Origin: Bacteroidales bacterium
GTDB taxonomy: Bacteria > Bacteroidota > Bacteroidia > Bacteroidales > UBA1556
DNA length: 34,243 nucleotides
Assembly: GCA_029935325.1 (NCBI GenBank)
Contig: JAOZKO010000001.1
Location: 1 to 34,243, forward strand
Reading direction: 5' to 3'
The translations under genes were made by a program, and so were the position numbers. Position 1 is the stretch's first letter; every line of letters begins with the position of its first letter. This document shows, in pieces, positions 20,225 to 34,026 of this stretch. The notes beneath the pieces were generated by a model, which was not told where the DNA came from, did no database searches, and worked only from the letters and a program-made list of their open reading frames with translations.

Positions 20225-20267
20225 TAATATAAAACAAATCAGAAGGTCGTATGACCTTCTGATTTGT
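20225..20267 (-). terminator. Rho-independent terminator closing the outer-membrane operon
   Basis: Perfect 15-bp stem (20234-20248 pairs with 20253-20267) and a 4-nt loop. The minus strand follows with TTTATATT. It lies 38 bp after the stop at 20305. Confidence 0.7.
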
Positions 20268-20304: not shown

Positions 20305-21357
20305 TTATAGATGTAGTCGCACTCCTATACTGTGAGATCCTGCAAAAGGATTTGAGGATTGGTATGCATAATCAATTGAAAAGCCACCTTCTTCACCTTT
20401 TTTAAATGGTGCTCCAATAGAAACTCCTGCTGAGAAACCTGTAAGTGCTGTCATTCGCATGGCATCATCTAAAAGACCATTTTCATATACATAACCAGCT
20501 CGTAGAATTAGATATTTACTCCACTTAAACTCCATACCAACAGCATGCTGATCGTTGGTAAATGAGTTGGATGTAAATGTATATGCTGGTGTTAATGTAG
20601 ATTTATCATTTAGATAAAAATCATAGGAAGCTCCAATTCTAATTAGTGAAGGAAGTTCAAAACCTGCTGATCGCTGCTCTACAGTCATTGCGTTAGCTTG
20701 ACCAGGAACAAAACCTCTAAAAGACATTCCATCTCCAGTATATTTCATGTTTGGTCCAACATTCTTCAGCGCAACACCAAATTTAATTTGATCACGCTTT
20801 CCTGAGATATATTGAATTCCAGCATCAATAGCAACAGTTGAAGCCTTAGTATCAGAAGTTGATTCGCTGACTATTTTAACATTCACACCACCGTAAATAC
20901 TATTAGAAAATGATTTTGCATAGGATAAATTCACATTACTCTGCTTAGGAGAGAATGTTCCTATTCCACCTTCTGGCTGATCCACAGTTGTGATATCAAT
21001 ATCTCCATGTGAGATTGATACTACTGAAAGCCCTATTACACCACCATTTTCGCCTATTTTTTGGGTTAATCCAAATGCTGCAATATTTGTTCCACTACCT
21101 TTTAACCATGTGGTATTTGCAAATATAATTTCAGTTGAACGTGTATGTGCAGTACCTGCAACATTCAGAAATTGTGCTTCTAAACCTTGTGCATAAGCTG
21201 AATTTGCTCCTCCTAATCCACTACTTCTTGCCCATGGATTAATCAGAAGTTGACCAGCTCCGGCCTCTCCAGCACGATCCTTATTGCCTGCATAGCTTTC
21301 ACCTAATACAAGGGTTAGCACTAGGCTCATTATCAAAATTTTATATACTTTTCTCAT
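20305..21357 (-). CDS. PorV/PorQ-family-like outer membrane beta-barrel (FadL-like)
   Basis: The signal peptide is MRKVYKILIMSLVLTLVLGESYA. The N-terminal segment AGEAGAGQLLINPWARSSGLGGANSAYAQGLEAQFLNVAG follows the PorV/PorQ pattern (hydrophobic-LI..ARs.G.GG...A, then a NPAG-like turn). Alternating beta-strand character runs throughout, but the protein ends in GVRLHL rather than a terminal aromatic residue. No search was run. Confidence 0.5.
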   Translation of the reverse strand: MRKVYKILIMSLVLTLVLGESYAGNKDRAGEAGAGQLLINPWARSSGLGGANSAYAQGLEAQFLNVAGTAHTRSTEIIFANTTWLKGSGTNIAAFGLTQKIGENGGVIGLSVVSISHGDIDITTVDQPEGGIGTFSPKQSNVNLSYAKSFSNSIYGGVNVKIVSESTSDTKASTVAIDAGIQYISGKRDQIKFGVALKNVGPNMKYTGDGMSFRGFVPGQANAMTVEQRSAGFELPSLIRIGASYDFYLNDKSTLTPAYTFTSNSFTNDQHAVGMEFKWSKYLILRAGYVYENGLLDDAMRMTALTGFSAGVSIGAPFKKGEEGGFSIDYAYQSSNPFAGSHSIGVRLHL

Positions 21358-21384: not shown

Positions 21385-24300
21385 TTAAAATGCATTTAAA
21401 TCAACTGGGCGTAAAACGCCAAACCACTTAATAACTTTCTCCCCAATATTAGGAGCATCTATATGGATATAGTAAACTCCACTTGCGATTGGAATATTAG
21501 CAGCGTTCTTTAAATCCCAATCAAGATAAGTATCAGTCTCATCTTTCTTATATCGTCTAACCAATACTCCATTAGTAGAATATATACTGATAGTACAGCG
21601 CTCAGGAAGGTTTGTTATTCTTACTCTATTATCTAACTGATCTGTTTCGTAGGCTGAAAAAGCATAGTACGGATTAGGTACTGCACGTATTATATCTAAT
21701 GCGCTTTCTGCAGTTGCTAAATCACCTGTAATAGTTGCTATATTATCAGTATTAAATGAATATGCTGGGTAATTACTATTGTATTCGCTACTAGTTACTG
21801 TAGAATTTAATTTATTCCATATGGCTTTTTGGTAAGAATAATTAACTCGTAATCTTACCCATGCATCGTTTTGAAGCCATTCTTCACCTGCAACTGCCAT
21901 TGGAATACTTACCCACATTATTTCTCGGTGTACTTGCATTAAAGTAATACTATTTGGACTTCCTTTCAATTTACCATATAGCCACTTACCACTATCGTAA
22001 GCTGGACATCCATTTGTTTCAGGTGAGTGACGAAGAATATAAAGGAAGTGCTTACCACCCATTAGAGGTGAACCAAGATTGGTTGAATAATTTGAAGTTG
22101 GATTAAACTGCATATCACGTCCGTTTTCACCATTTAGCCATGATGATTCACCGTACATAATATTTAGTCTTTCGCCGCTTTCTACGCTAATTGCGTATCC
22201 AGGGAACCAACCCATACCTTTCTCAGCAATATAATTTGCTACATTTTCATTATTGGGGTCATCACCACTGCCATCAGCGGCAAACTTTCCGTCTTTGTCT
22301 ATGGAATTAGAAGCACGTAATTGGAATTTATTACGATTCCCCTCACTTACAACAGCATCATCACCAGTTTCTAATACTACACAGCGTGTCCATTTTGATT
22401 TGTCAGAAGTAAAAATAACATCAACACTTTCTGTTATAGAGATTTTATAGCTAGTATGAGTGGGAGTTCCTGCAGGTCCATTTTCAAATTTTGAAACTAA
22501 ACGATATGGAGCCCATGTTCCACCAATTAATTTTTCATAAATCTCATTAGGATCTATCCAACTAGTAGGGTCATAATCATTATGGAATGCCTTGGCATTA
22601 TCATCAACACTACCTGCCCTAATCCAGTTAAATGGACTTGGAGTACTAGGATCTAAATCAGGAGCACCATCAACATCAGGAAAGCCTGTAAGCCAACGAT
22701 GTGAACTATCTTGGTAAATTAATTCAGAAGAAATATAGCCATTGGTTTCAAGGTCAACATCTCCTGCTCCTTTATTTTGCTGAATCTGAATACTTAAACC
22801 TTCGTCAAGGAATAATTGCTCATTCCCAAGCTCAATTGTTGCATTTGAAGTAGTAATAGAATCTCCATTTTTATATAGTACCCAATTAGCAGTATCAATA
22901 CTACCTGCTGCTTCAAACTTTAATATATATTCAGCATTTTCTACATTTAGAGGGTCAATTACTTTAACATTAATTGGACCTGCTCCATTCATATATTCAA
23001 TCTTCTCAACTTGATTTTCAGCTATAATTCGCGCCTTAGTTGCGGGTGTTAATTCTAAATCCATTCCACCATTACCACGACCATCAAGACGTGTAATCAT
23101 AGGTCCTGTGCCAAATTCAGAATTTACAATTGTACCACTACCTTCTGGATTAGGAATATGTGGCATTAAAGTGTGAATTTTAATAGGGCCAATAGCTGAC
23201 TTACGCCCTGCTAAATACCTTCTTTTCTGTCCATATAGTCCGTTTAAAGTATTTGGATCTTGTGAATATGGCAGATAATTATTGTGAGAGTATGCTATTG
23301 CAACAAAATAATATTTCTTATTATTTACTAATCGTGGATTACCACTAGCAAATTCATCTTCAGTAATTTTAAATGAATGGCGAATTCCTTGATTTTCGGC
23401 TTCTACCTTTAATTCAGGAACATTACCACCAAGCTTTTCATTATATACATAATTAATAAGGTTCTCAACAGTATCTTTTAAATCACATTGTGCAATTATA
23501 CGTGCTTTGTCAGGATCATTCAAATCAGCCAAAGAAACTTCATCATTTGCTAATTGGTAAATTTGATATCCTTGGAAGTGATATAGAGGATCATAATTTG
23601 TTGTATCATTATTTAGAGCTGAAATAGTAACATCCTCTTCAGTATAATCCTCATTGGCATTATTTGAAGACTCAATATTCTTTAAATAAATAATAATAGT
23701 TTTATCTAATTCTTGTGCCAATATCTCAGGAGCATCAGGGCCATCAAGTACTTTAAAGCAGTTATCAAATAATGCTTGAGCTTTATCATCAACCTGACGT
23801 AATAAAGTAACTGAAGCAAAAGGACCTCCTGTAGAAGAGCGTGCCCAAGGAATACCAACAGTAATATAATTTATTGCACCAGATTCCAATGTAAATTCAC
23901 CAGCAGATTGCATAAATCGGCGATCACCAGGTGCATTGTTTGAGGTTTCTTCTGTCCATTTTTTAGGGCTAGGAGTTACTCCTCCTGTTCCCCAATCACA
24001 AGGGTCAGTTAAATCAGGAAACATAAAATCACATTCCGGACCACCAGTATTATGTGCATCACCACCATAGGTCATTCTTGTTCCATCTTTCCATATTCCA
24101 CGTAAAAATTGGTAATATTCTGGGGCTAATGTAGGGTCTTGAGTTGCTGATGTTCCAAATGGAGGTCTATTATGATAAACGAACTTTCTCATACCGAATC
24201 TTTCGTTGTCTATAATTGTATCGCCAAAGTTAACACCATTAATACTTTCATCACATATTTGATCGCCATTGGCATCGTATTTCGGATTGTCTATTCCATC

Positions 24301-25419
24301 ATTGTCCATATAAGGTCCTTGGAAAAAATCTACACCAATTGCAGGTGGCTGTGCACCATAATCTTGGGGTCTGCCTAAGCCATCAATAGCTGTTCCATTA
24401 TAGCAATAACCTAAACCACGTTGTACATCACAACCTACATAATCATCGTCAGAATAACCTAAATCAGTATCTACCCACTGACTAAAATATGTATTAGTTA
24501 ATCTAAATGTGGAGCGATTTATAATTTCATAAGTATAAAAGGTCATATTATTAATCTCATCATTGGTAGTAAAAGAAAAAGCTTGAGCTCTAATTTCAAC
24601 ACCAATAGCATTACCCTTTGTTTCAGAGTGTATATTGCCATTATCATTAAATACCCACCAAATTGTTTGGTCACCTTTAAGTACGGCATCAGCTAATATT
24701 CCACCTTCAGGAGTTTTTTCGTAGTAATAATCACCAGCGGCATTCTTTGTGGGCTTACATAATTTGTTTCCAATATCGTAATATGGGTATTCGCCTTGTT
24801 CCCATTCATATACGCCATTTCCATTCAAATCAACAAATGGAGCTAGCCATTGGCTTTGTCCTAAAGAAACATCACCATTTGCAGGCCAATCTTTAATAAT
24901 GTCTGGTACGGCATAATCTGGATAGTCTGAATTATTATATTTCAAAATAAAATTATCCACCTTTTCTCTAGTAATTACAAAGTGCTCATCGTACTCATCG
25001 CAAATTTCAGCAGTAATACTTGCTTTACCATCTACGGTTAAAGGTCCTGGCCAATAGTCATTTCCACTTCCTCGGTAACGCTGAAAGGCTCCTTTTAACT
25101 GGCCATTAACATCAGTGCCACCTAACCATAATGAGGCAGAGAACATTGATGTTTTGGATGAACCTCTGGGGATTTCATACTGAGCAAGACCTTGCAAATC
25201 CCACCACATATCGCCACCAGTATTTATACGAGCTCTAACATTGTTAAGGTTTAATTCAGTTGATGCTTTGGCAGGTAGGCAGCCTGCAGCACCTGTGCGT
25301 GTACTATTTGAACTAGTTCTAGCGCCACTTTTTACCCCTTGGATATTTCTAGCGAAAGTTACGCTAGAGATTAAGGAGGCGACTAATATTAGCGCGAATA
25401 TATTTATAAATCTCTTCAT
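21385..25419 (-). CDS. Large secreted protein of unknown function with T9SS-type C-terminal sorting domain
   Basis: 1344 aa. The signal peptide MKRFINIFALILVASLISSVTFA has no lipobox. There are Asp/Asn/Gly-rich loops. The last ~95 aa resemble a type-A T9SS CTD (AVPNPYY, CTISIYSTNGVLVRRY, IASGVYYIHIDAP, KVIKWFGVL). Confidence 0.6.
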   Translation of the reverse strand: MKRFINIFALILVASLISSVTFARNIQGVKSGARTSSNSTRTGAAGCLPAKASTELNLNNVRARINTGGDMWWDLQGLAQYEIPRGSSKTSMFSASLWLGGTDVNGQLKGAFQRYRGSGNDYWPGPLTVDGKASITAEICDEYDEHFVITREKVDNFILKYNNSDYPDYAVPDIIKDWPANGDVSLGQSQWLAPFVDLNGNGVYEWEQGEYPYYDIGNKLCKPTKNAAGDYYYEKTPEGGILADAVLKGDQTIWWVFNDNGNIHSETKGNAIGVEIRAQAFSFTTNDEINNMTFYTYEIINRSTFRLTNTYFSQWVDTDLGYSDDDYVGCDVQRGLGYCYNGTAIDGLGRPQDYGAQPPAIGVDFFQGPYMDNDGIDNPKYDANGDQICDESINGVNFGDTIIDNERFGMRKFVYHNRPPFGTSATQDPTLAPEYYQFLRGIWKDGTRMTYGGDAHNTGGPECDFMFPDLTDPCDWGTGGVTPSPKKWTEETSNNAPGDRRFMQSAGEFTLESGAINYITVGIPWARSSTGGPFASVTLLRQVDDKAQALFDNCFKVLDGPDAPEILAQELDKTIIIYLKNIESSNNANEDYTEEDVTISALNNDTTNYDPLYHFQGYQIYQLANDEVSLADLNDPDKARIIAQCDLKDTVENLINYVYNEKLGGNVPELKVEAENQGIRHSFKITEDEFASGNPRLVNNKKYYFVAIAYSHNNYLPYSQDPNTLNGLYGQKRRYLAGRKSAIGPIKIHTLMPHIPNPEGSGTIVNSEFGTGPMITRLDGRGNGGMDLELTPATKARIIAENQVEKIEYMNGAGPINVKVIDPLNVENAEYILKFEAAGSIDTANWVLYKNGDSITTSNATIELGNEQLFLDEGLSIQIQQNKGAGDVDLETNGYISSELIYQDSSHRWLTGFPDVDGAPDLDPSTPSPFNWIRAGSVDDNAKAFHNDYDPTSWIDPNEIYEKLIGGTWAPYRLVSKFENGPAGTPTHTSYKISITESVDVIFTSDKSKWTRCVVLETGDDAVVSEGNRNKFQLRASNSIDKDGKFAADGSGDDPNNENVANYIAEKGMGWFPGYAISVESGERLNIMYGESSWLNGENGRDMQFNPTSNYSTNLGSPLMGGKHFLYILRHSPETNGCPAYDSGKWLYGKLKGSPNSITLMQVHREIMWVSIPMAVAGEEWLQNDAWVRLRVNYSYQKAIWNKLNSTVTSSEYNSNYPAYSFNTDNIATITGDLATAESALDIIRAVPNPYYAFSAYETDQLDNRVRITNLPERCTISIYSTNGVLVRRYKKDETDTYLDWDLKNAANIPIASGVYYIHIDAPNIGEKVIKWFGVLRPVDLNAF

Positions 25420-25443: not shown

Positions 25444-28400
25444 TTAGAAGTTAAAGATTACACCGATTCTAATTCTTCGGGGTAAACTATAATTATAGGG
25501 ATTATTAATTTTTGTTGAATATAAGTCAATAAATGACTGTGGGTCATTCTTAGCATATATTGAAGACTGATGCTCTGCCGCTGATAAATATCCATCATCA
25601 TCAGGATTACCAGTATAACGATATACACCCATTACATTTCTTGAATCAAGGACATTAAGTACTTGTAGATATACATTTAAGTAATGGTAGTTTTTGCCCT
25701 TGCCTTTTAAGTATATATCACGGTCTAATTTCAAGTCCATTCTAAACTGCCATGGCAAACGAGAACCGTTTAGTGAACCATCTAATACAGGTTGTCCACC
25801 TCCGAGTAATGCACTAGTGATATTACTTTGGCGGCTATATGGCAAACCAGAACCTCCCATAAATGTAACATTAAGTCCAGTATTTTCTAAAATTCTAACT
25901 ACTTTAACCTTGTCAGTACCTTTTACTTTACGGGTAAATGTTGGTCCATTATATGCTTTCCCTCTACCATATCGGTAATCCGTAATTACATTAATAGTAT
26001 GGTTACGATCTTGATTAATTGGGCTTAGAGTACGTAGGTTAGGCTGTCCTGATGTTACTAAATTAATACCTGATGTAGCACTTGAACCAGTTGCATTAGC
26101 AAATTGTAAAGTATAGCTAACTTTTAACCAAAGGTTCTTAGTACGACGCAAGTCGTAAGCTAGGGTAACCCCCTTTGCAGTACCAAAGTCAATATTATTA
26201 TATGAAATATAAGAAACAGGATAAGCACTTGTATAACGGAATGCTTGAATCTGATCTCTAAACTCGCGATAGTAAGCTGAGAATTTTAATGATGATGATT
26301 TTGAAAGTTTCTGTTGGAAACCTAATTCATAATCGGTTGTTCTTTCAGGCTTAAGATTAGGGTTATTAATTACTCCATTTCCTACTTGATCAATAAAGTA
26401 GTAGTTAATCATAGGTATTCTATTATTTCCTGTTGGACGTGAAGTTAATACGTCGTAATGAGCAAAGAATAATGCTTCATCAGAAATAGGGAATGAGAAT
26501 GATATACGTGGAGAAATAGTATTTTGTGGAGTATAGTCTTCAAAAGCAGAAGGTTTTAACTCTTTTTCATCTGGATTAACTAGATAAGGAGCAATTCCTG
26601 ATGCAGTTTGTAATACAGTAGGATCAGAAATTTCAGTTCCCTGAGCATTGTACCAACGACTTCCGTCACGATAACCAACAATAGCAGTAGGATTATCAAT
26701 ATCGTTAACATATACTACATAATCTTCTTCCATATTACTAGGAATAGATCCTAAATTAGGATTGGTGATTTCTTTTACTGTTTTAGCTTCAGAGAATAAA
26801 AACGGGTCTTTAAGTACTTTCTGGTTTGCATCAAAGCGGTCGAAACGTACACCTATTGTGAAAATCAAATCTTTGAAAGCAAATTTATCTTGAATATAAC
26901 CTGCCATATAAATTGGCTCATAAGCTCCTACAGTCCTAGTATAATTACCATCACTATTAATCTCATTAAAGAAATCTTCAAAAGCTGGTTTACCTTCAAT
27001 TTTGTTTCCATAAGGATCATATCCATAATAGAAAACATAAGGACTACCACTATTTAGTAACTCATCAACACTAAACATATCAACACTAAAAGTTGAAGGG
27101 TCATAACTATCTAAATCTATCCACTCTAATCCATCAACTGGTAAGCCTAGCTTTGTTCTTAGTTGTTTATCAAAATAAGCTTGTGTATTACCATCATATA
27201 AGCGGTTATACTCAATAGTATCCTGAAAAATACCTGAAGCATCACTTATAAGAATAGGATTAGCAAAATCTAATTGCTCAATATGACGGTTAGTAATACC
27301 TCTCATAAGAGTCCATAGTCCTGCAGGATTATATCCATAACCAGTTTCTTTTCGTTGCTCGTATTGGATACCAAATTGAATTTCGTGATTTCCAATATCA
27401 GCAGAACCATTTGCATTAATTCCGAAACGAGAATTGTCGAAATTACTAAATGCATTATAAGGAGTGCCTGTATTGGCATATAAACCATAAACATTTTCGG
27501 GAAATTGACCATTAAGCAATGCTCCACCATTTTGAACAGTTAATGCGTTTCTATAAAAACGATCATCTTCATAAAGATTGTAATATTGGTCAGTATAATT
27601 ACTTAGGTTTGGATTTATTTCTGATCTTTCAAAAGCATATAGAGTATCGAGGAAACCGTTTTGTACATATACATTGTTTAATCCTGTTACGGTATCTTCT
27701 CCAAGCTCATAGGACTTAACTGAATGTGTAGTAAATTTACCAACATATCCATAATTAAAAATATTGTCACCATGTAGTGGGTTATATGTTTTTGCTGTTG
27801 TTCTAGAGTAGTCGGCTTGAATACTATAATAAACATTTTTTACAACTGATCTACTATCTTTAGCGGTAGGGAAACGCTGTGTAAACTTACCATAAACACG
27901 CCAAGTATTATTAATACGTTCACCATTATTCTCAGGATTATATAAGGTGTTACTCATTGACCATAATGAGCGTTTTCCCCAAATAAACTGACCACCAAAA
28001 GTAAGATTAGTATTATCAGTAGTACGCACATCAATTTTTCCAGAGAAATTAGCACTCATTGATTCTGCATTTATCCGAGTATGGTTATTAACCAAATCAT
28101 CAGAATAAACATATTCTGAATTAGGGAATGAACCAAAGCCAGTTCCTGAAGGACGTACTGGATTATTTCTAAGATATTCTAGTTTTTCATCATTTACCTG
28201 ATAAGTACCTATAGAAGCAGGAGAGCCATCTCTATTATAATTACCCTCACCAGATATAAAGAAACCTAGAAGTGAAGTAGATTTTGTAGAGTCTTTGCCT
28301 TTAATAAGTGGCCCTTGTACACTAAATCCAATAAGATTGTAACCATATCCATCAAGTAATTCGGAAGTAACAACTTCAACTCCGGCACCAAAAGTACGAG

Positions 28401-29079
28401 AAGGCCCTTTGGTAGTAATATTTATAATACCACCTGTAAGGTCACCGTACATTACGGGTGTACCACCAGTAATAACAGCTACCTGATCGATTGCTGCTTG
28501 GGGCAATGTTGCTGATCCAATAACACGAACACCGTCAATATATGTAGCAGTACCACCTGATCGTTGACCACGCATACCACCCATATTGCCATTTTCATCG
28601 GAGAATACACCACCAACAGTTACAGCAACTGCCTCGGCTGAACGCCCTGGCATTTGTGCAATTTCCTCTGAGGTCATTGTTCCACCAGTAGAAGTTTCAT
28701 CTTTGTCAATTAAAGGTACTCTATATTCAAATACCTCGAAAACATCTAAGTCTGTTGCGGAAGATTCTAACTCAATATCTAAAAAGCGAATCTTGTTAGC
28801 ATTAATTAGTACACCTTTGTATAATTTCTTTTTGTAACCAACATATGATATCTTCACATCATACTTTCCTGGTTGAATCGGCTTGATTTTGTAGTTTCCC
28901 TCAAAGTCAGTTGTTCCACCATTGACTACTTTTCCTCCTAATTCTACCACCACGTTGGCAAAGGGAATAGGTTCTTTGGATACTCCATCGGTAACTTTTC
29001 CTTGTAATGTTCCGGATTGTGCATTTGCAAATACAGTAATCAACAAGATCATACTTGTTAAAAGTAAATTTCGAATCAT
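25444..29079 (-). CDS. Oversized TonB-dependent-receptor-type outer membrane protein (CarboxypepD_reg domain, plug, beta-barrel)
   Basis: The ORF is open from ATG 29148. ATG 29079 gives the signal peptide MIRNLLLTSMILLITVFANAQ. It has a CarboxypepD_reg-like sandwich (GTLQGKVTDGVSKEPIPFANVVV...GKYDVKISYVGYKK) and plug motifs (MRGQRSGGTATYIDGVRV, GGIINITTKGP). It ends in IRIGVIFNF, a terminal aromatic. Confidence 0.8.
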   Translation of the reverse strand: MIRNLLLTSMILLITVFANAQSGTLQGKVTDGVSKEPIPFANVVVELGGKVVNGGTTDFEGNYKIKPIQPGKYDVKISYVGYKKKLYKGVLINANKIRFLDIELESSATDLDVFEVFEYRVPLIDKDETSTGGTMTSEEIAQMPGRSAEAVAVTVGGVFSDENGNMGGMRGQRSGGTATYIDGVRVIGSATLPQAAIDQVAVITGGTPVMYGDLTGGIINITTKGPSRTFGAGVEVVTSELLDGYGYNLIGFSVQGPLIKGKDSTKSTSLLGFFISGEGNYNRDGSPASIGTYQVNDEKLEYLRNNPVRPSGTGFGSFPNSEYVYSDDLVNNHTRINAESMSANFSGKIDVRTTDNTNLTFGGQFIWGKRSLWSMSNTLYNPENNGERINNTWRVYGKFTQRFPTAKDSRSVVKNVYYSIQADYSRTTAKTYNPLHGDNIFNYGYVGKFTTHSVKSYELGEDTVTGLNNVYVQNGFLDTLYAFERSEINPNLSNYTDQYYNLYEDDRFYRNALTVQNGGALLNGQFPENVYGLYANTGTPYNAFSNFDNSRFGINANGSADIGNHEIQFGIQYEQRKETGYGYNPAGLWTLMRGITNRHIEQLDFANPILISDASGIFQDTIEYNRLYDGNTQAYFDKQLRTKLGLPVDGLEWIDLDSYDPSTFSVDMFSVDELLNSGSPYVFYYGYDPYGNKIEGKPAFEDFFNEINSDGNYTRTVGAYEPIYMAGYIQDKFAFKDLIFTIGVRFDRFDANQKVLKDPFLFSEAKTVKEITNPNLGSIPSNMEEDYVVYVNDIDNPTAIVGYRDGSRWYNAQGTEISDPTVLQTASGIAPYLVNPDEKELKPSAFEDYTPQNTISPRISFSFPISDEALFFAHYDVLTSRPTGNNRIPMINYYFIDQVGNGVINNPNLKPERTTDYELGFQQKLSKSSSLKFSAYYREFRDQIQAFRYTSAYPVSYISYNNIDFGTAKGVTLAYDLRRTKNLWLKVSYTLQFANATGSSATSGINLVTSGQPNLRTLSPINQDRNHTINVITDYRYGRGKAYNGPTFTRKVKGTDKVKVVRILENTGLNVTFMGGSGLPYSRQSNITSALLGGGQPVLDGSLNGSRLPWQFRMDLKLDRDIYLKGKGKNYHYLNVYLQVLNVLDSRNVMGVYRYTGNPDDDGYLSAAEHQSSIYAKNDPQSFIDLYSTKINNPYNYSLPRRIRIGVIFNF

Positions 29080-29174
29080 AGATTTAATATTTATATATTT
29101 ATAATTCCTGTGCGTTTTTAAAGGGCTCAAAAATAGAAAAAAATTCATTGGGTTTAACTAATTTTAACATCCAC

Positions 29175-29630
29175 CTAATTCTTTATGTATGGAGGGTTTA
29201 AAATAGCATCATATATGATAGCATCTTGTGGGTTGAAAACAAAATTATCCATAATGTTTTCCTCCTTTACTATTGAATAGGCAGCCTGTTTTTTATGTCT
29301 GTTTTTTAGGCTTATATTATCATCATATTCAATGCTATATGATGCACTATCCAATACTTTTTTATCTTCTATTATTTCATCTTCCTCTTCTATATATTCT
29401 TCATTATAATATTCGGTTTCAACTGCAGGAATAACTTTTTCTTCTCCAAAAAAAGTTTTAATAAAATCGTCTAATTTCTCCTCTGTATTGCCTCTTTTTG
29501 GAGTTTTTAACGGTCTTTCTTGAGCATTCCTTTGCTCAATAACGGGGTCAAGCCTTTTTTTCGTTGTTTTCTTGTATTGTTTATAAATCAAAAAAACTAT
29601 TCCAAGTATAATAGGTAAAAGATTTTCCAT
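29175..29630 (-). CDS. Small N-terminally anchored, highly charged hypothetical protein
   Basis: The ORF is open from TTG 29657. ATG 29630 gives MENLLPIILGIVFLIYKQYKK (TM anchor), then a Lys/Glu-rich region (EEYIEEEDEIIEDKK). I recognise no family. Confidence 0.45.
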   Translation of the reverse strand: MENLLPIILGIVFLIYKQYKKTTKKRLDPVIEQRNAQERPLKTPKRGNTEEKLDDFIKTFFGEEKVIPAVETEYYNEEYIEEEDEIIEDKKVLDSASYSIEYDDNISLKNRHKKQAAYSIVKEENIMDNFVFNPQDAIIYDAILNPPYIKN

Positions 29631-29670
29631 GCATAACGGTTTTGAAATTGTGTGCAATTATTTCAGAGGT

Positions 29671-30050: not shown

Positions 30051-30809
30051 TTATTTCCCTTCATTCACTCCCATACCAAAAAGGGCAAAATCATATTTTA
30101 TAGGGTCGGAGGAATCAAGCTGTTTCAGATTATTTGTAAGTTCTACTACCGCTTTCCAATCATTTTGCTTGCGACTTAAAAGTCCTAGCTCTCTTCCCAT
30201 TCTAGCACTATGGGTATCTAATGGAATAAGTAGTGATTCTGCTTTTAATGATTTCCAGATTCCAAAATCCACTCCTTTTTCATCGGAGCGAACCATCCAT
30301 CTTAGAAACATATTTATACGTTTTGCGGCAGAGCCTTTTTCTGGATTTGCCACATGCTTTTCGCTTCTTTGCAAATGCGGTGTTTCAAAAAATACTTTTC
30401 GGAAGTGGATAATGCTCTCTTTCATATTTGTAGGATGCTCGGAGAAAAGAGGCTCCAATCCACCATGGTTTTTGTAGATGTTCTGAAGCGAATACATAAA
30501 GAACAAACAATCGTCACCATTGAAAGTGCGGTAAATGAAATCCGAAAATCGAGCGAAGTCTTTGTCGGGAGCCTGCATTATAAAATTGTAAGGCTGCCAA
30601 TCCATAAGCTCCATCCAAAGTTTAGCTTTTTTTATAATCTGAGGCCTTTGCCCCCAAGCAAGAGTTGCTGCTATAAAACCTGATATTTCAATGTCTTCCT
30701 TTTTGGAAAAGGCTCTAGGAATTTGAATAGGATCAGTCTCAATAAATTGTGGCTGCTGATATAATGCTGCCTTTGCATTCAGTATTTCAATAGTTTCTTG
30801 TGCTATCAT
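30051..30809 (-). CDS. TIGR02757-family (DUF2400) protein, cytoplasmic, function unknown
   Basis: 252 aa with no signal peptide. The N-terminal segment FIETDPIQIPRAFSKKEDIEISGFIAATLAWGQRPQIIKKA matches my recollection of the TIGR02757/DUF2400 family. Confidence 0.6.
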   Translation of the reverse strand: MIAQETIEILNAKAALYQQPQFIETDPIQIPRAFSKKEDIEISGFIAATLAWGQRPQIIKKAKLWMELMDWQPYNFIMQAPDKDFARFSDFIYRTFNGDDCLFFMYSLQNIYKNHGGLEPLFSEHPTNMKESIIHFRKVFFETPHLQRSEKHVANPEKGSAAKRINMFLRWMVRSDEKGVDFGIWKSLKAESLLIPLDTHSARMGRELGLLSRKQNDWKAVVELTNNLKQLDSSDPIKYDFALFGMGVNEGK

Positions 30810-30811
30810 AC

Positions 30812-31621
30812 TTACTTTGCAATATATGTCATTATTGAGCGTGTTTGTGCTGTAAATACTCCAATGGCATCTCCTTCAATATTACTAACAGGATTTCCTG
30901 GTGCAGCACTAAATCCACCACCACCTATATTTTGGCTAAGGACTTTATAATATTCAAAGGAGGCTTCGTCCATAGTAAGAAGACTTATATGTATTGTATC
31001 CAATGGATTAATGGGTATTTGAAAAAATGGAAATGCAATTTGGTCGCCATCTTGTCCGTCGTCACGGCTAATATACAAACTAGAATAGTAGGCTTTATTT
31101 ACAGATATTTTAAGCCTATAATAGTTTTTCTCACCGGGAATATCAGTGAAAAAACATACTGCCGTTAAATGGTCTTTTCCATGTGGACCAAACCCTAATG
31201 CATAGGCTCCAATGGAGTCTATTTTAACCATTTGAGGTAGTATTGATTTGCTGCTTATTTCTGTGCCTTCAATGCTCCCAGATAGCTCATACTCATCAAA
31301 ACTGGAACCCATAGGGATAAGAGGATTCCTAAACTGACCTTTGCCATAATAGTCTAAATGATAAGTATTGCCTGCTTTATCATTAATAAATAAGTCAGCA
31401 TCAGAAATAGTGTCAAATTCGTTACTTGTATAATAACTGCCTGTTCTTGTTAGCTTTACAAATGCATTTAGATGTGTAGAATCATAATGGGAATAGCTTA
31501 TTACTCCGTCTATTACAATACGTTGGTTAGCATCATTCAAATCCACATCAATTACTTTGGTGCAAGAGGCTAGGATTACTAATAGGCTAAAGGCTAGTAT
31601 TTTATTAAGTTTAATTTTCAT
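30812..31621 (-). CDS. DUF4249-family outer membrane lipoprotein
   Basis: Lipoprotein signal MKIKLNKILAFSLLVILASC. The ~270-aa size, the start CTKVIDVDLNDANQRIVIDGVIS and the position 3 bp after a ~790-aa TonB-dependent receptor gene are the usual DUF4249 context. Confidence 0.6.
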   Translation of the reverse strand: MKIKLNKILAFSLLVILASCTKVIDVDLNDANQRIVIDGVISYSHYDSTHLNAFVKLTRTGSYYTSNEFDTISDADLFINDKAGNTYHLDYYGKGQFRNPLIPMGSSFDEYELSGSIEGTEISSKSILPQMVKIDSIGAYALGFGPHGKDHLTAVCFFTDIPGEKNYYRLKISVNKAYYSSLYISRDDGQDGDQIAFPFFQIPINPLDTIHISLLTMDEASFEYYKVLSQNIGGGGFSAAPGNPVSNIEGDAIGVFTAQTRSIMTYIAK

Positions 31622-31624
31622 AAT

Positions 31625-33997
31625 CTAAAATTTAAAATTATAAGTAAGAGATGGAACAAATCTAAAAAGAGCCAATTGCACTGCTTCAGTTACATTTGGA
31701 TCATCTTCACTTACCTGAAACGATATTGAATAAGCATTCTCGCGTCCGTAAGCATTATAAACGGAGAAATTCCAGCTAGAAAGAAATTTCTTAGGAATCC
31801 TTTCCTTAATACCTGTTGCGGGATTTACTTTATATTTATATTTTTTCCCATACCAATTTACCCCAATATCAAGGCGGTGGTAGGCAGGCATTCTATATCC
31901 GTTTCTCTCAGTATAATAGTTTATTACCATACCATCAATTTCATATTTTCCGGAAGGGAAAGTAACGGCACTTCCTGTATAATACACCCAAGTAGCTGCC
32001 ACATTTAGCCTTTCTGAAATATCATACATACCAACAATTGATATATCATGCGTTCTGTCCTGACGTGCTGGATACCAGCTATTGGAATTTATTTCTTCAA
32101 ATTGCTTTTCTACCTTTGATAAGGTATATGATACCCATCCGCTAAGTTTGCCAATTCGCTTTTTTAATAATAGCTCTAAACCATAAGCCCTACCATGGCC
32201 GTATAATAAATCGCCTTCCACCAATGGATTGAAATTTACCTCAGCACCAGTACGGTAATCAATGCTATTTTGAATAATCTTATAATATATTTCCCCTGAA
32301 AACTCGAAGGTGTTTTTTCTAAAATTCCTGAAATATCCTAATGCAATTTGGTCGGCTATTTCGGGTTTAATATTATTAGAGCTAGGGAGCCAAATATCTG
32401 TAGGAGTACTACTTGTAGAGTTTGAAACTAAATGCAAATATTGATATGTACGAGCATAAGATGCTTTTACTGAGCTTTTTGGATTGATAATATATAGCAT
32501 GCTAAGTCGAGGCGCTAATCCATTATATGATGCTACTGTTTCTCCCTTTTCGTAATATTTTGAATCCGATACATCACCATCATCATCAAATGAATATATA
32601 GTTCCTGGTCCGATTTGAGTAAAGTTTGAATATCTTAATCCATAGGTTAAATGAAAGAATTTAGTAATCTTTTGCTCATTGGAGATATATAACGCACTTT
32701 CGATACTGTATCTCTTCTCTAATGTATTGTCAAGCTGAACTTCGCCATCAACTTTTACATCTCCTGGCGAAAAAGTATGGTGAATAATATTACCACCAAA
32801 GCTTAATTTGTTTTTACTATTAATAAAGTATTGCAGGTCCTCCTTTAAGTTGAAATCCAAAATATCAGAACCTGCCTCAATGGTTTTGTCATTAAATGTT
32901 GCTTTAAACACATAATTATAGTCACTATATAATAAGGTGGTGTTTGAGAATAATTTATCACTAAAAAGGTGATTCCATCTTAATGTAGCGGTTTTGTTTC
33001 CCCAATCAAATCCAAAGGTATTATCAAAACCGAACTTATCTCTACCGAAATATCCTGATAAATAAATCCTATCTTTTTTCGATACCTGATAGTTTGCCTT
33101 TAGGTTTAGGTCATAGAAATATAGGGTGCTATTTTGCTGTGTTTCGTTTGGTGAGAAGGCTAAAAACATATCGGCATAAGTTCTTCGGCCGCTAATAATA
33201 AATGAGCCTTTGTCTTTTACAATAGGTCCCTCTAAACTTAGTTTTGATGCAATAATCCCGATTCCACCACTGGCATGATAAGATTTATTATTTCCTTCCT
33301 TCATTTTTATATCCATTACAGAAGATAGGCGGCCACCATATTGAGCAGGCATTCCTCCTTTATATAGTTTAACATCTTTAAGGGCATCCGAATTAAAAAC
33401 AGAGAAAAAGCCCATCATATGCGATGCATTATATACCGGTGCTTCGTCCAGTAATATTAGGTTCTGATCGGCACTACCACCTCTAACAAAAAAACCTGCA
33501 CCGCCATCGCCTTCACTCTTAATTCCAGGAAGCAGCTGAATGGTTTTCATAACATCTTTCTCACCAAAGATTACAGGTATTTTTTCAACTTCTTTTATGG
33601 TGACTTTGCTAACACTCATCTCAGGACTGGTGACATTAGCATCAGATCTTTCTCCAGTAATTTCAACTCCCTGAAGTTGTTGTGATGAAGGTGTAAGCTC
33701 AATATTCTTTTGATAATTTTTATCCAGCTTAATTTTCATGGTTTTTTTTTCAAAACCTATAAATGAGTACAGAAGAGTATAGTCTCCTTCTGGAAGGCTC
33801 AATGAATAAAACCCATAAACGTTTGTAACTGCGCCAATACTTGGAAGTTCTTTAACTAATAACATAGCACCTATTAAATCTTCCCCACTGCTTCCGTCTT
33901 TAATAGTACCACTAATTGTATATTCTTTAGCGGTTTGACTAAAAGATGAGAAGGCAATAAGAATAAAAAATAGACTTAAAAGTATTTGTATTTTCAT
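31625..33997 (-). CDS. TonB-dependent receptor (CarboxypepD_reg domain, plug, barrel)
   Basis: The ORF is open from TTG 34009. ATG 33997 gives the signal peptide MKIQILLSLFFILIAFSSFSQT. It has a CarboxypepD_reg segment (YTISGTIKDGSSGEDLIGAMLLV...GDYTLLYSFIGFEKK) and plug motifs (FVRGGSADQNLILLDEAPVYN). It ends in SLTYNFKF. Confidence 0.85.
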   Translation of the reverse strand: MKIQILLSLFFILIAFSSFSQTAKEYTISGTIKDGSSGEDLIGAMLLVKELPSIGAVTNVYGFYSLSLPEGDYTLLYSFIGFEKKTMKIKLDKNYQKNIELTPSSQQLQGVEITGERSDANVTSPEMSVSKVTIKEVEKIPVIFGEKDVMKTIQLLPGIKSEGDGGAGFFVRGGSADQNLILLDEAPVYNASHMMGFFSVFNSDALKDVKLYKGGMPAQYGGRLSSVMDIKMKEGNNKSYHASGGIGIIASKLSLEGPIVKDKGSFIISGRRTYADMFLAFSPNETQQNSTLYFYDLNLKANYQVSKKDRIYLSGYFGRDKFGFDNTFGFDWGNKTATLRWNHLFSDKLFSNTTLLYSDYNYVFKATFNDKTIEAGSDILDFNLKEDLQYFINSKNKLSFGGNIIHHTFSPGDVKVDGEVQLDNTLEKRYSIESALYISNEQKITKFFHLTYGLRYSNFTQIGPGTIYSFDDDGDVSDSKYYEKGETVASYNGLAPRLSMLYIINPKSSVKASYARTYQYLHLVSNSTSSTPTDIWLPSSNNIKPEIADQIALGYFRNFRKNTFEFSGEIYYKIIQNSIDYRTGAEVNFNPLVEGDLLYGHGRAYGLELLLKKRIGKLSGWVSYTLSKVEKQFEEINSNSWYPARQDRTHDISIVGMYDISERLNVAATWVYYTGSAVTFPSGKYEIDGMVINYYTERNGYRMPAYHRLDIGVNWYGKKYKYKVNPATGIKERIPKKFLSSWNFSVYNAYGRENAYSISFQVSEDDPNVTEAVQLALFRFVPSLTYNFKF

Positions 33998-34026
33998 TAG
34001 AGTATTCAATATTAAAATAATTTTGG

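Follow-up and report, generated by a model that had tools for sequence, protein, structure and literature searches.

Type IX secretion system (T9SS) cargo falls into two classes, type A, which is carried by PorV and cleaved, and type B, which is kept on PorP/SprF-like carriers; in the SusCD, RagAB and BtuB-BtuG complexes, on the other side of this comparison, the partner proteins capture the substrate above the barrel. Here we analyze the gene of a large secreted protein of 1344 amino acids (aa), found in a stretch of 34,243 nucleotides from Bacteroidales bacterium (GenBank assembly GCA_029935325.1, contig JAOZKO010000001.1, positions 1 to 34,243), which is called the window below and comes from a metagenome-assembled genome (MAG) that is 75% complete and divided into 413 contigs. 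Within an outer-membrane trio that is deeply conserved but unstudied, the 1344-aa protein takes the central place and bears the T9SS tag, being encoded between a TonB-dependent-type transporter and a barrel of the PorV/PorQ family. This operon context, missed in the original prediction (a reading of the DNA letters alone), is the main clue to its function.

PorU and PorZ are T9SS substrates with unprocessed C-terminal domains (CTDs), retained on PorV and PorQ, respectively, and cognate PorV-like barrels have been proposed to shield CTDs from cleavage (PMC10202324). Type-B cargo is kept on PorP/SprF-like carriers often encoded beside the cargo gene (PMC9143113), and cryo-electron microscopy demonstrated that the CTD binds carrier loops inside the SprA pore and exits the translocon together with its cognate carrier (PMC10994853). 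Also, in the BAM complex of Bacteroidota, a large surface protein is kept in place by BamG, a barrel of FadL fold, through a conserved segment at the end of that protein which is wedged into the barrel wall (PMC12578637). Moreover, barrels related to TonB-dependent receptors take part in secretion: PG0534, a TonB-receptor-like barrel, is needed for T9SS function in Porphyromonas gingivalis (PMC5445135), and Oar, a TonB-dependent transporter, exports a protease (PMC6434023). A literature search found no paper on the protein family described here or on its three-gene unit.

A three-gene unit with its own PorV/PorQ-family barrel

The single open reading frame (ORF) of 1344 aa that had been read at 21385-25419 stands, the minus strand being what had to be added, and all the peptides quoted from it are found in its translation. 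The three genes of the unit lie on the minus strand (Table 1), with a gap of 24 nucleotides between the transporter and the 1344-aa gene and with the barrel gene starting 27 nucleotides past the stop of the latter. In Pfam, the transporter matches CarboxypepD_reg (8.6e-16), Plug (3.8e-6) and TonB_dep_Rec_b-barrel (7.8e-13); its translation contains a TonB-box-like DLDVFEVFEY segment and ends in IGVIFNF, and its true start is probably M24 (MIRNLL...), at 29079. Beyond the barrel and a terminator-like hairpin come greA and then a HIT-family gene.

A word-indexed search returned more than 5,924 homologues of the 1344-aa protein, several of them named 'T9SS type A sorting domain-containing protein' by NCBI; the best 120 of these align over the full length with 52-80% identity, none of them carrying a precomputed Pfam domain. 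Homologue matches are present in 176 of 401 sampled genomes of the phylum, with the full-length matches confined to few Bacteroidia families and several large families having none (e.g. 0/87 and 0/28 genomes). The relatives in other classes of the phylum are ~1090-1190 aa long and ~30% identical to the window protein. The large uncharacterised family that the original prediction had pointed to is borne out by these numbers, extending over Bacteroidia and other classes of the phylum.

With tblastn, the neighborhood of the gene was compared with that of 80 loci outside this species, most of them in MAGs of Bacteroidales and Lentimicrobiaceae. The transporter was found in 77 of them, the barrel in 78 and greA in 72, and the order transporter, 1344-aa homologue, barrel is kept in 77/80, the gaps being contig ends or a rearrangement (L017 and L046). 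Across species, the trio proteins are 45-58% identical, against 60-68% for GreA. In the two rearranged loci, upstream of the big gene come the barrel and greA, and downstream of it HIT, with no transporter within 6 kb; this order may be genuine or may come from an assembly artefact common to both loci.

A further 13 regions were examined, 10 from other classes, 2 from Bacteroidia and one holding a paralogue from the same genome (contig C262). The trio order is observed in both Bacteroidia regions and in 9/10 of the other-class loci, where the big protein is ~30% identical, the tenth having a paralogue alone. Moreover, each of five complete genomes from other classes carries a single trio and, besides it, paralogues that have no barrel.

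The 350-aa barrel reaches 148 bits in the PorV_fam model NF033709 (cut-off 90) and stays below the equivalog cut-offs of PorQ (75 vs 220), PorV (68 vs 250) and PorV2 (41 vs 325), as well as that of the PorP/SprF model TIGR03519 (30.6 vs 90.55). A maximum-likelihood tree was built with 49 proteins of the PorV family, taken from six genomes and the trio loci, the trio group being set by gene neighborhood and not by the tree. A branch with 100/98 support separates the 20 trio barrels from PorV, PorV2 and a third clade that we take to be PorQ; further barrel clades of other classes are also separate from them. Judged by sequence, the trio barrels make up an old and distinct branch within the PorV/PorQ family, inherited with the big protein. 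When the barrel is aligned with 89 orthologues, its most conserved part is the mature N-terminus, GNKDRAGxAGAxxLLINPWARS, where residues 31-45 have an identity of 0.75. It is possible that this stretch is the counterpart of the N-terminal hatch in FadL-fold barrels, and it could also be the contact site for the tail of the big protein.

A T9SS in this genome is indicated by PorU (1272 bits) and PorV (442 bits) on contig C26 and by 133 CTDs above the cut-off, and the PorU model gave no match to the 1344-aa gene in the genome scan. It also encodes an adjacent pair matching NF052324 and NF052325, presumably the putative T9SS sortase PorU2 and PorV2; no paper using these two names in this sense was found in a literature search. 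Then, at least three large CTD proteins with a PorV-family barrel exist in this genome, two of these pairs, the trio included, being encoded side by side. In two genomes of other classes, G128 and G036 (loci L118-L144), there are 14-16 PorV/PorQ-family barrels each, with orthologous pairs between both and with several clades besides PorV, putative PorQ, PorV2 and the trio barrel; a single barrel per genome adjoins a protein with the N-terminal module described below. Membership of the trio in the PorU/PorZ or BamG-BamH systems was considered and rejected, the models giving no match. Another FadL-like protein of the genome, on contig C154, scores 65.8 bits with the BamG model (cut-off 250).

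With regard to the flanks of the unit, the gene directly 3' of the barrel in seven other-class loci codes for a multihaem cytochrome-TPR protein (3), a GWxTD-domain protein (3; L100, L101 and L108) or an FG-GAP/ASPIC protein (1). The first have ~720-745 aa and carry multihaem cytochrome c motifs (MtrC/MtrF-like, c554, c3) and TPR repeats at the C-terminus (L099:12163-14328; L105:4492-6726, minus strand; L106:11468-13657). Upstream of other-class trios, phosphoglycerate dehydrogenase (2) and a trypsin-like PDZ protease (1) are encoded, and no carbohydrate-active enzyme was detected in the small sample of 10 flanking products scanned from the seven loci. Together with the one trio per genome in the five complete genomes, this led us to reject, for the few loci sampled, the idea of a multi-copy module for sugar utilisation. 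In the window, a 160-aa ORF (29175-29657, minus strand) lies just upstream of the transporter and has an N-terminal hydrophobic helix followed by an acidic body rich in Glu, Asp and Tyr; it is matched by tblastn in 2/80 related loci only and is probably outside the conserved unit. Farther away, at 30812-34009 (minus strand), another outer-membrane pair is encoded, in which a 794-aa CarboxypepD_reg/Plug/TonB-dependent receptor is followed by a DUF4249 protein; after it comes a DUF2400 protein (30051-30809).

The C-terminal sorting domain and its tail

The structure of the 1344-aa protein was predicted with AlphaFold2 (AF2) in two overlapping halves, residues 24-760 and 561-1344, each with a 49-sequence alignment. 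In this model, the CTD is a β-sandwich of seven strands (residues 1252-1333), which in Foldseek matches the RemZ CTD (8gl8_D) with a TMt of 0.71 and a probability of 1.00, followed by the NucA CTD (8glk_D) and 5hfs_A. Of these, 8gl8_D and 8glk_D are substrate CTDs seen inside the Flavobacterium johnsoniae translocon. The PNP and GxY motifs are also present. By sequence, the domain falls short of the type-A CTD models: in Pfam, the only match of the whole protein is Por_Secre_tail (PF18962), with 13.4 bits against a cut-off of 27, and in NCBIfam it is TIGR04183, with 17.6 bits against 23. In a scan of the whole genome for type-A CTDs, 138 matches were obtained, 133 of them above the cut-off, and the 1344-aa protein ranks 134th, with 21.8 bits. 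The predicted CTD is a new variant among type-A sorting domains. The type-A assignment of the original prediction is retained as regards the fold, for a domain that is type-A-like but atypical, and it is corrected as regards the extent, the CTD proper having ~87 residues instead of ~95 and being followed by a tail.

The protein ends in ...KWFGVLRPVDLNAF, with about 8-11 residues after the last CTD strand, modelled by AF2 as a short helix with low confidence. For comparison, we took the 130 canonical CTDs of the same genome whose end lies on a contig: 126 of them finish between -1 and +2 relative to the end of the CTD model, and the window protein does so at +10. The other four have a longer loop, yet their ends resemble ...KKMVLIK. 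None of the 130 has a terminal Phe, the residue in which the 1344-aa protein ends, and PorU and the PorU2-like protein of this genome have canonical ends as well.

Among the best 120 of the more than 5,924 homologues, the last residue is aromatic in all (119 Phe, 1 Tyr), and R[PQ]xD[LM][NQ][AS]F stands at the terminus in 113. The nine distant trio relatives from other classes likewise extend beyond the last strand, and every one of them has a hydrophobic residue at -3 and N, D or S at -2 and ends in F or L (for example, ...KKRIQLDLL, ...KKILQLSDF and ...KKRVQLNAF). Conversely, the tail is absent from 120 short paralogues that share the N-terminal module (0/120), and a 1331-aa paralogue without a barrel neighbor (L107) ends canonically in ...VVKKMLLLK. 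The tail is then confined to the family members having the PorV/PorQ-family barrel. An extension past the sorting domain had been noted in the original prediction, and its conservation is confirmed by these alignments. The reason offered there for retention, that a terminal Phe is typical of membrane-associated proteins, does not hold: the hydrophobic residues of the tail are at positions 0, -3 and -5, without the alternating pattern of a β-signal, whereas it is the neighboring TonB-type barrel that ends in IGVIFNF. An outer-membrane β-signal in the tail was accordingly discarded for its wrong hydrophobic periodicity.

In the long family, the CTD is as conserved as the N-terminal module, with mean pairwise identities of 0.70 and 0.72, respectively; the corresponding values for the short paralogues, whose CTD is canonical, are 0.28 and 0.43. 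A signal that is discarded after export should not stay this constant. Moreover, the strict conservation of the tail suggests that the protein would stay docked on the barrel. Retention of the CTD finds indirect support in three observations, the private barrel 27 nucleotides downstream, the conservation of the CTD and the restriction of the tail to barrel-bearing members.

A different scenario is that the protein is ordinary T9SS cargo, from which PorU removes the CTD and the tail, the protein being released or attached to anionic lipopolysaccharide, the barrel acting only as a dedicated translocon shuttle or independently, and the transporter sharing the operon by chance. The standard type-A fold of the CTD with its PNP and GxY motifs would agree with this, as would the NCBI name of several homologues, the presence of PorU and PorV in the genome and the short paralogues, which are plain cargo with canonical CTDs. 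Nonetheless, we consider it unlikely, because so high a conservation, equal to that of the functional module, would be surprising in a domain destined to be discarded, because the tail is invariant in the 120 best homologues and recognisable in other classes, and because a barrel co-inherited as a separate clade fits a lasting partnership.

The N-terminal module and the predicted structure

The signal peptide, MKRFINIFALILVASLISSVTFA, is weakly conserved (identity 0.28) and has no Cys at its end, in agreement with the earlier reading that a lipobox is missing. The first Cys of the protein is C47, which is invariant across the long family within AAGCLPA; this conserved AAGC (residues 44-47) was considered as a sign of a lipoprotein and rejected, since C47 is 24 residues beyond the hydrophobic core of the signal peptide and is not a lipobox Cys. 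A phmmer search with the whole protein against all PDB chains gave no significant match, and neither did the 49-sequence profile against the PDB, whose best match was the CTD of PorZ (PDB code: 5m11, E 0.75).

The N-terminal half of the model (residues 24-760) has a mean predicted local distance difference test (pLDDT) of 70, and Foldseek found nothing in the PDB at E<=0.001. The best matches (E 7e-3, TM 0.17), too weak to be used, fell on β-sandwich domains of enzymes (glycoside phosphorylases, GH116, heparinase II) and on FN3 domains, and against viral structure models only FN3 matches were obtained (E 1e-5). Also, a 24-sequence profile of the N-module built from long, short and distant members returned only CTDs from PDB and Pfam. 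As modelled, no solved structure would share the fold of the N-module. The FN3-like region that follows shows weak matches to FN3 domains (2crm, E 0.07).

The C-terminal half (residues 561-1344) is modelled with a mean pLDDT of 83. No specific fold match was found by Foldseek for its middle β-rich region, which includes the conserved block GMGWFPGYA..ETGERLN..NGRDM.FNPT (residues 1068-1108; conservation of 0.75 over residues 1081-1110). In the distant relatives, tblastn aligns residues ~1-880 and ~1210-1344 only, ~880-1220 being unaligned in other classes. The top Foldseek match of this half is PorZ (5m11, E 3.4e-5), with a TM of only 0.11 over the whole model, and PorU (6za2) is also among the matches. 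The absence of an assignable catalytic family in the original prediction agrees with all these data: Pfam, NCBIfam, PDB sequence and profile searches and fold searches gave no enzyme, and the profile searches of the PDB returned CTD matches only.

The similarity to PorZ would fit a second alternative, in which the trio is envelope-biogenesis or T9SS-accessory machinery, that is, a scaffold like BamH on BamG or a supplier like PorZ, with a structural or export role for the TonB-type barrel. The unit is single-copy, 50-58% identical across families, near greA with its 60-68%, and adjoins housekeeping genes; furthermore, the FadL-fold barrel BamG anchors BamH by a terminal segment wedged in the barrel (PMC12578637), and PG0534 (PMC5445135) and Oar (PMC6434023) are precedents for TonB-receptor-like barrels in secretion. 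However, the PorZ match is of only 0.11 in TM overall, the big protein is unlike PorU and PorZ beyond the CTD, the barrel gives no match to the BamG model, and in the sample the full-length protein is restricted to few Bacteroidia families, several large families (e.g. of 87 and 28 genomes) giving no match and the unit not being seen in many families with a T9SS, so that it is not universal in the phylum. For these reasons, such machinery seems quite unlikely.

The N-terminal ~510 residues also occur in proteins of ~585 aa with an ordinary CTD. One of them is encoded in the same genome, on contig C262; its N-module is 35-40% identical to that of the window protein, with the same motifs, and its canonical CTD scores 44-51 bits. 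Homologues of this paralogue are of ~560-990 aa, mostly 570-800, with a canonical PF18962 CTD, and some of the short paralogues carry cadherin-like or Big domains. Among the scanned paralogues and relatives there is one fusion to a BNR propeller, the other Pfam and NCBIfam matches being CTDs or of the FlgD_ig type. The N-module is then an autonomous module, which in the short paralogues is a stand-alone secreted unit. When 1.84 billion representatives of 50%-identity clusters were searched by HMMER with residues 50-565, the matches numbered 6,694 with a threshold of E<=1e-3 and 5,087 with the stricter E<=1e-10. The N-module superfamily amounts to several thousand such clusters without a Pfam or NCBIfam model or a solved structure, and a function found for it would annotate thousands of environmental and gut Bacteroidota proteins. 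Beside the C262 paralogue lie two genes that look like glycosyltransferases when their translations are judged by eye, and another CTD protein.

The Asp/Asn-rich loops of the N-module, previously proposed to bind calcium, correspond to residues 195-215, 315-332 and 370-392, and the segment with spaced cysteines, GPECDFMFPDLTDPCDWG, to residues 460-477. In the alignment of 49 homologues, the Asp and Asn residues are mostly invariant (D317, D319, D325, D326, D331, D372, D374, D377 and N378), and each of D197, C463 and C474 is kept by 90% or more of the sequences; the invariant positions also include many of Trp, Gly and Tyr. As sequence features, the loops and the cysteines are far beyond what chance would give. 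It is plausible that the acidic loops are calcium sites, and the pattern fits structural calcium sites and disulfides of an extracellular protein. When short and distant members are added to the long ones, D197, D250, N258, D259, D317, D319, W488 and R501 are among the invariant residues; invariant His and Glu outside the loops are seen within the full-length family. The N-module might be a calcium-stabilised binding module or an enzyme. That the protein is a barrel-anchored structural surface protein (an adhesin or surface layer) without a link to the transporter, its loops serving only for stabilization by calcium, is very unlikely: the all-β multidomain build with an FN3-like domain, Asp/Asn loops typical of calcium-stabilised extracellular proteins and the cadherin-like or Big domains of some short paralogues speak for it, but adhesins and surface layers vary fast, which disagrees with a full-length identity of 52-80% in the best 120 homologues, with the invariant Asp, Trp and Arg (plus His/Glu in the full-length family) outside the loops and with a link to the transporter gene kept across classes.

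Table 1. Coordinates of the features of the three-gene unit and of related genes in the same genome.
Feature	Coordinates	Strand	Basis or remark
1344-aa protein, ORF	21385..25419	minus	ATG start, translation
Signal peptide, residues 1-23, MKRFINIFALILVASLISSVTFA	25351..25419	minus	read from translation; no lipobox
N-module, residues ~50-560	23740..25272	minus	autonomous domain; three Asp/Asn-rich loops and C463/C474 pair
FN3-like β-sandwich with insertion, residues ~565-750	23170..23727	minus	AF2 strands throughout, modelled in both halves
Middle β-rich region, residues ~760-1233	21721..23142	minus	AF2 pLDDT mostly 85-95
Atypical type-A-like T9SS CTD, residues ~1247-1333	21421..21681	minus	AF2 and Foldseek
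C-terminal tail GVLRPVDLNAF, residues 1334-1344	21388..21420	minus	conserved in family
TonB-dependent-type barrel (transporter), 1234 aa, upstream partner	25444..29148	minus	CarboxypepD_reg, plug and barrel
PorV/PorQ-family outer-membrane barrel, 350 aa, downstream partner	20305..21357	minus	NF033709 PorV_fam
Terminator-like hairpin, 15-bp stem then T-run	20234..20267	minus	38 nt after barrel stop, upstream of greA
~584-aa paralogue, same genome	contig C262, L111:342-2090	minus	signal peptide, N-module and canonical CTD
Adjacent PorU2-PorV2 pair, same genome	contig C187, L145:31-5094 (1688-aa protein); C187:5125-6105 (barrel)	minus (1688-aa protein)	NF052324 720 bits; NF052325 502 bits

Proposed mechanism and comparison with known systems

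Based on these data, we propose that the 1344-aa protein would be exported by Sec to the periplasm and then carried over the outer membrane by the T9SS by means of its C-terminal β-sandwich, the carrier at the translocon being the private PorV/PorQ-family barrel and not the general PorV. The CTD would be left uncut, and together with the tail (hydrophobic-x-L-[N/D/S]-x-[F/L]-COOH) would hold the protein on the barrel, anchored at the surface, with the tail as an extra contact that gives a specific and stable pairing. Finally, the Asp-rich N-module would capture or process an extracellular substrate for the co-transcribed TonB-dependent transporter. Judging from sequence and from analogy with the described carriers, export by the T9SS and anchoring on the private barrel are probable. 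The whole reading, in which the protein is the surface subunit of a three-protein outer-membrane unit that includes the transporter, is more tentative and falls somewhat short of probable, and the same caution applies to the transporter link itself, which comes only from strict co-transcription and co-inheritance. In its favor, the constant presence of the transporter gene suggests that the two work together, most simply with the anchored protein as the capture or processing part of an uptake complex. Also, the single copy, the conservation near that of greA and the housekeeping neighbors point towards a broadly required substrate or a role in the envelope, and away from a niche glycan.

Several observations weigh against an uptake complex. 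No fold typical of binding or catalysis can be recognised in the N-module, whose model has a pLDDT of only ~70, and the module would need no transporter, since the short paralogues appear to function as ordinary secreted cargo. In NCBIfam, the transporter matches generic TonB-receptor models, and these only weakly; SusC/RagA is not among them. An Rfam search over the whole window gave no match, and so no riboswitch or regulatory clue to the substrate. In addition, the flanks of the trio vary by lineage, being greA/HIT in Bacteroidia and cytochrome-TPR or GWxTD proteins elsewhere, so the neighborhood offers no consistent hint of the substrate.

Among the described systems, the PorZ-PorQ and PorU-PorV pairs, which in P. 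gingivalis belong to the T9SS attachment complex, resemble the trio in having a large surface protein with a CTD of type-A fold and a barrel of the PorV/PorQ family. However, the 1344-aa protein has no homology to a β-propeller or to a C25 peptidase in Pfam, NCBIfam or the genome scan, in contrast with PorZ and PorU. The trio barrel also forms a clade of its own, the CTD has a tail that is absent from PorU and PorU2 of the genome, a TonB-type transporter is co-encoded, and the genome holds its own PorU and PorV elsewhere, apart from the trio.

The arrangement of a cargo gene followed by the gene of its own carrier barrel is shared with type-B cargo (SprB-SprF and PG1035-PorP), where the cargo is not cleaved and its carrier holds it at the surface (PMC9143113, PMC10994853). 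Unlike in type-B systems, the CTD of the window protein is type-A-like, with no match to PF13585 or TIGR04131, and the barrel belongs to the PorV/PorQ family instead of PorP/SprF (30.6 bits with TIGR03519). Taken together, the family points to what would be a third T9SS arrangement, with a CTD of type-A fold, a conserved tail and a separate PorV/PorQ branch.

BamG-BamH provides another parallel, with a FadL-fold barrel (of 14 strands in BamG) as the platform for a large extracellular protein (PMC12578637), and the wedging of the terminal segment of BamH is a possible model for the tail of the trio protein. Nonetheless, the trio barrel is not among the matches of NF053685, BamH is a lipoprotein anchored by its N-terminus, and no link to BamA is seen for the trio.

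Finally, SusCD, RagAB and BtuB-BtuG resemble the trio in that a TonB-dependent barrel is co-transcribed with a large surface partner. The 1344-aa protein differs from the partners in SusCD and BtuB-BtuG in that it is not a lipoprotein and has neither a SusD-family match nor a BtuG fold, and the transporter differs from SusC and RagA in having no match to that family. Also, unlike the SusCD and RagAB partners, the protein would have the T9SS as its route to the surface, with a third protein holding it there. It is conceivable, if doubtful, that the trio is an undescribed outer-membrane machine, in which a T9SS-exported protein with a third class of sorting domain (type-A fold plus tail) is locked for good by that tail in a dedicated FadL/PorV-fold carrier and forms the extracellular part of a TonB-dependent transporter, as a lipoprotein-free counterpart of SusCD already present in the ancestor that Bacteroidia share with the other classes of the phylum. 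If this is true, T9SS export would be tied to a TonB-dependent transporter, and the surface-partner complexes of Bacteroidota need not be built from lipoproteins.

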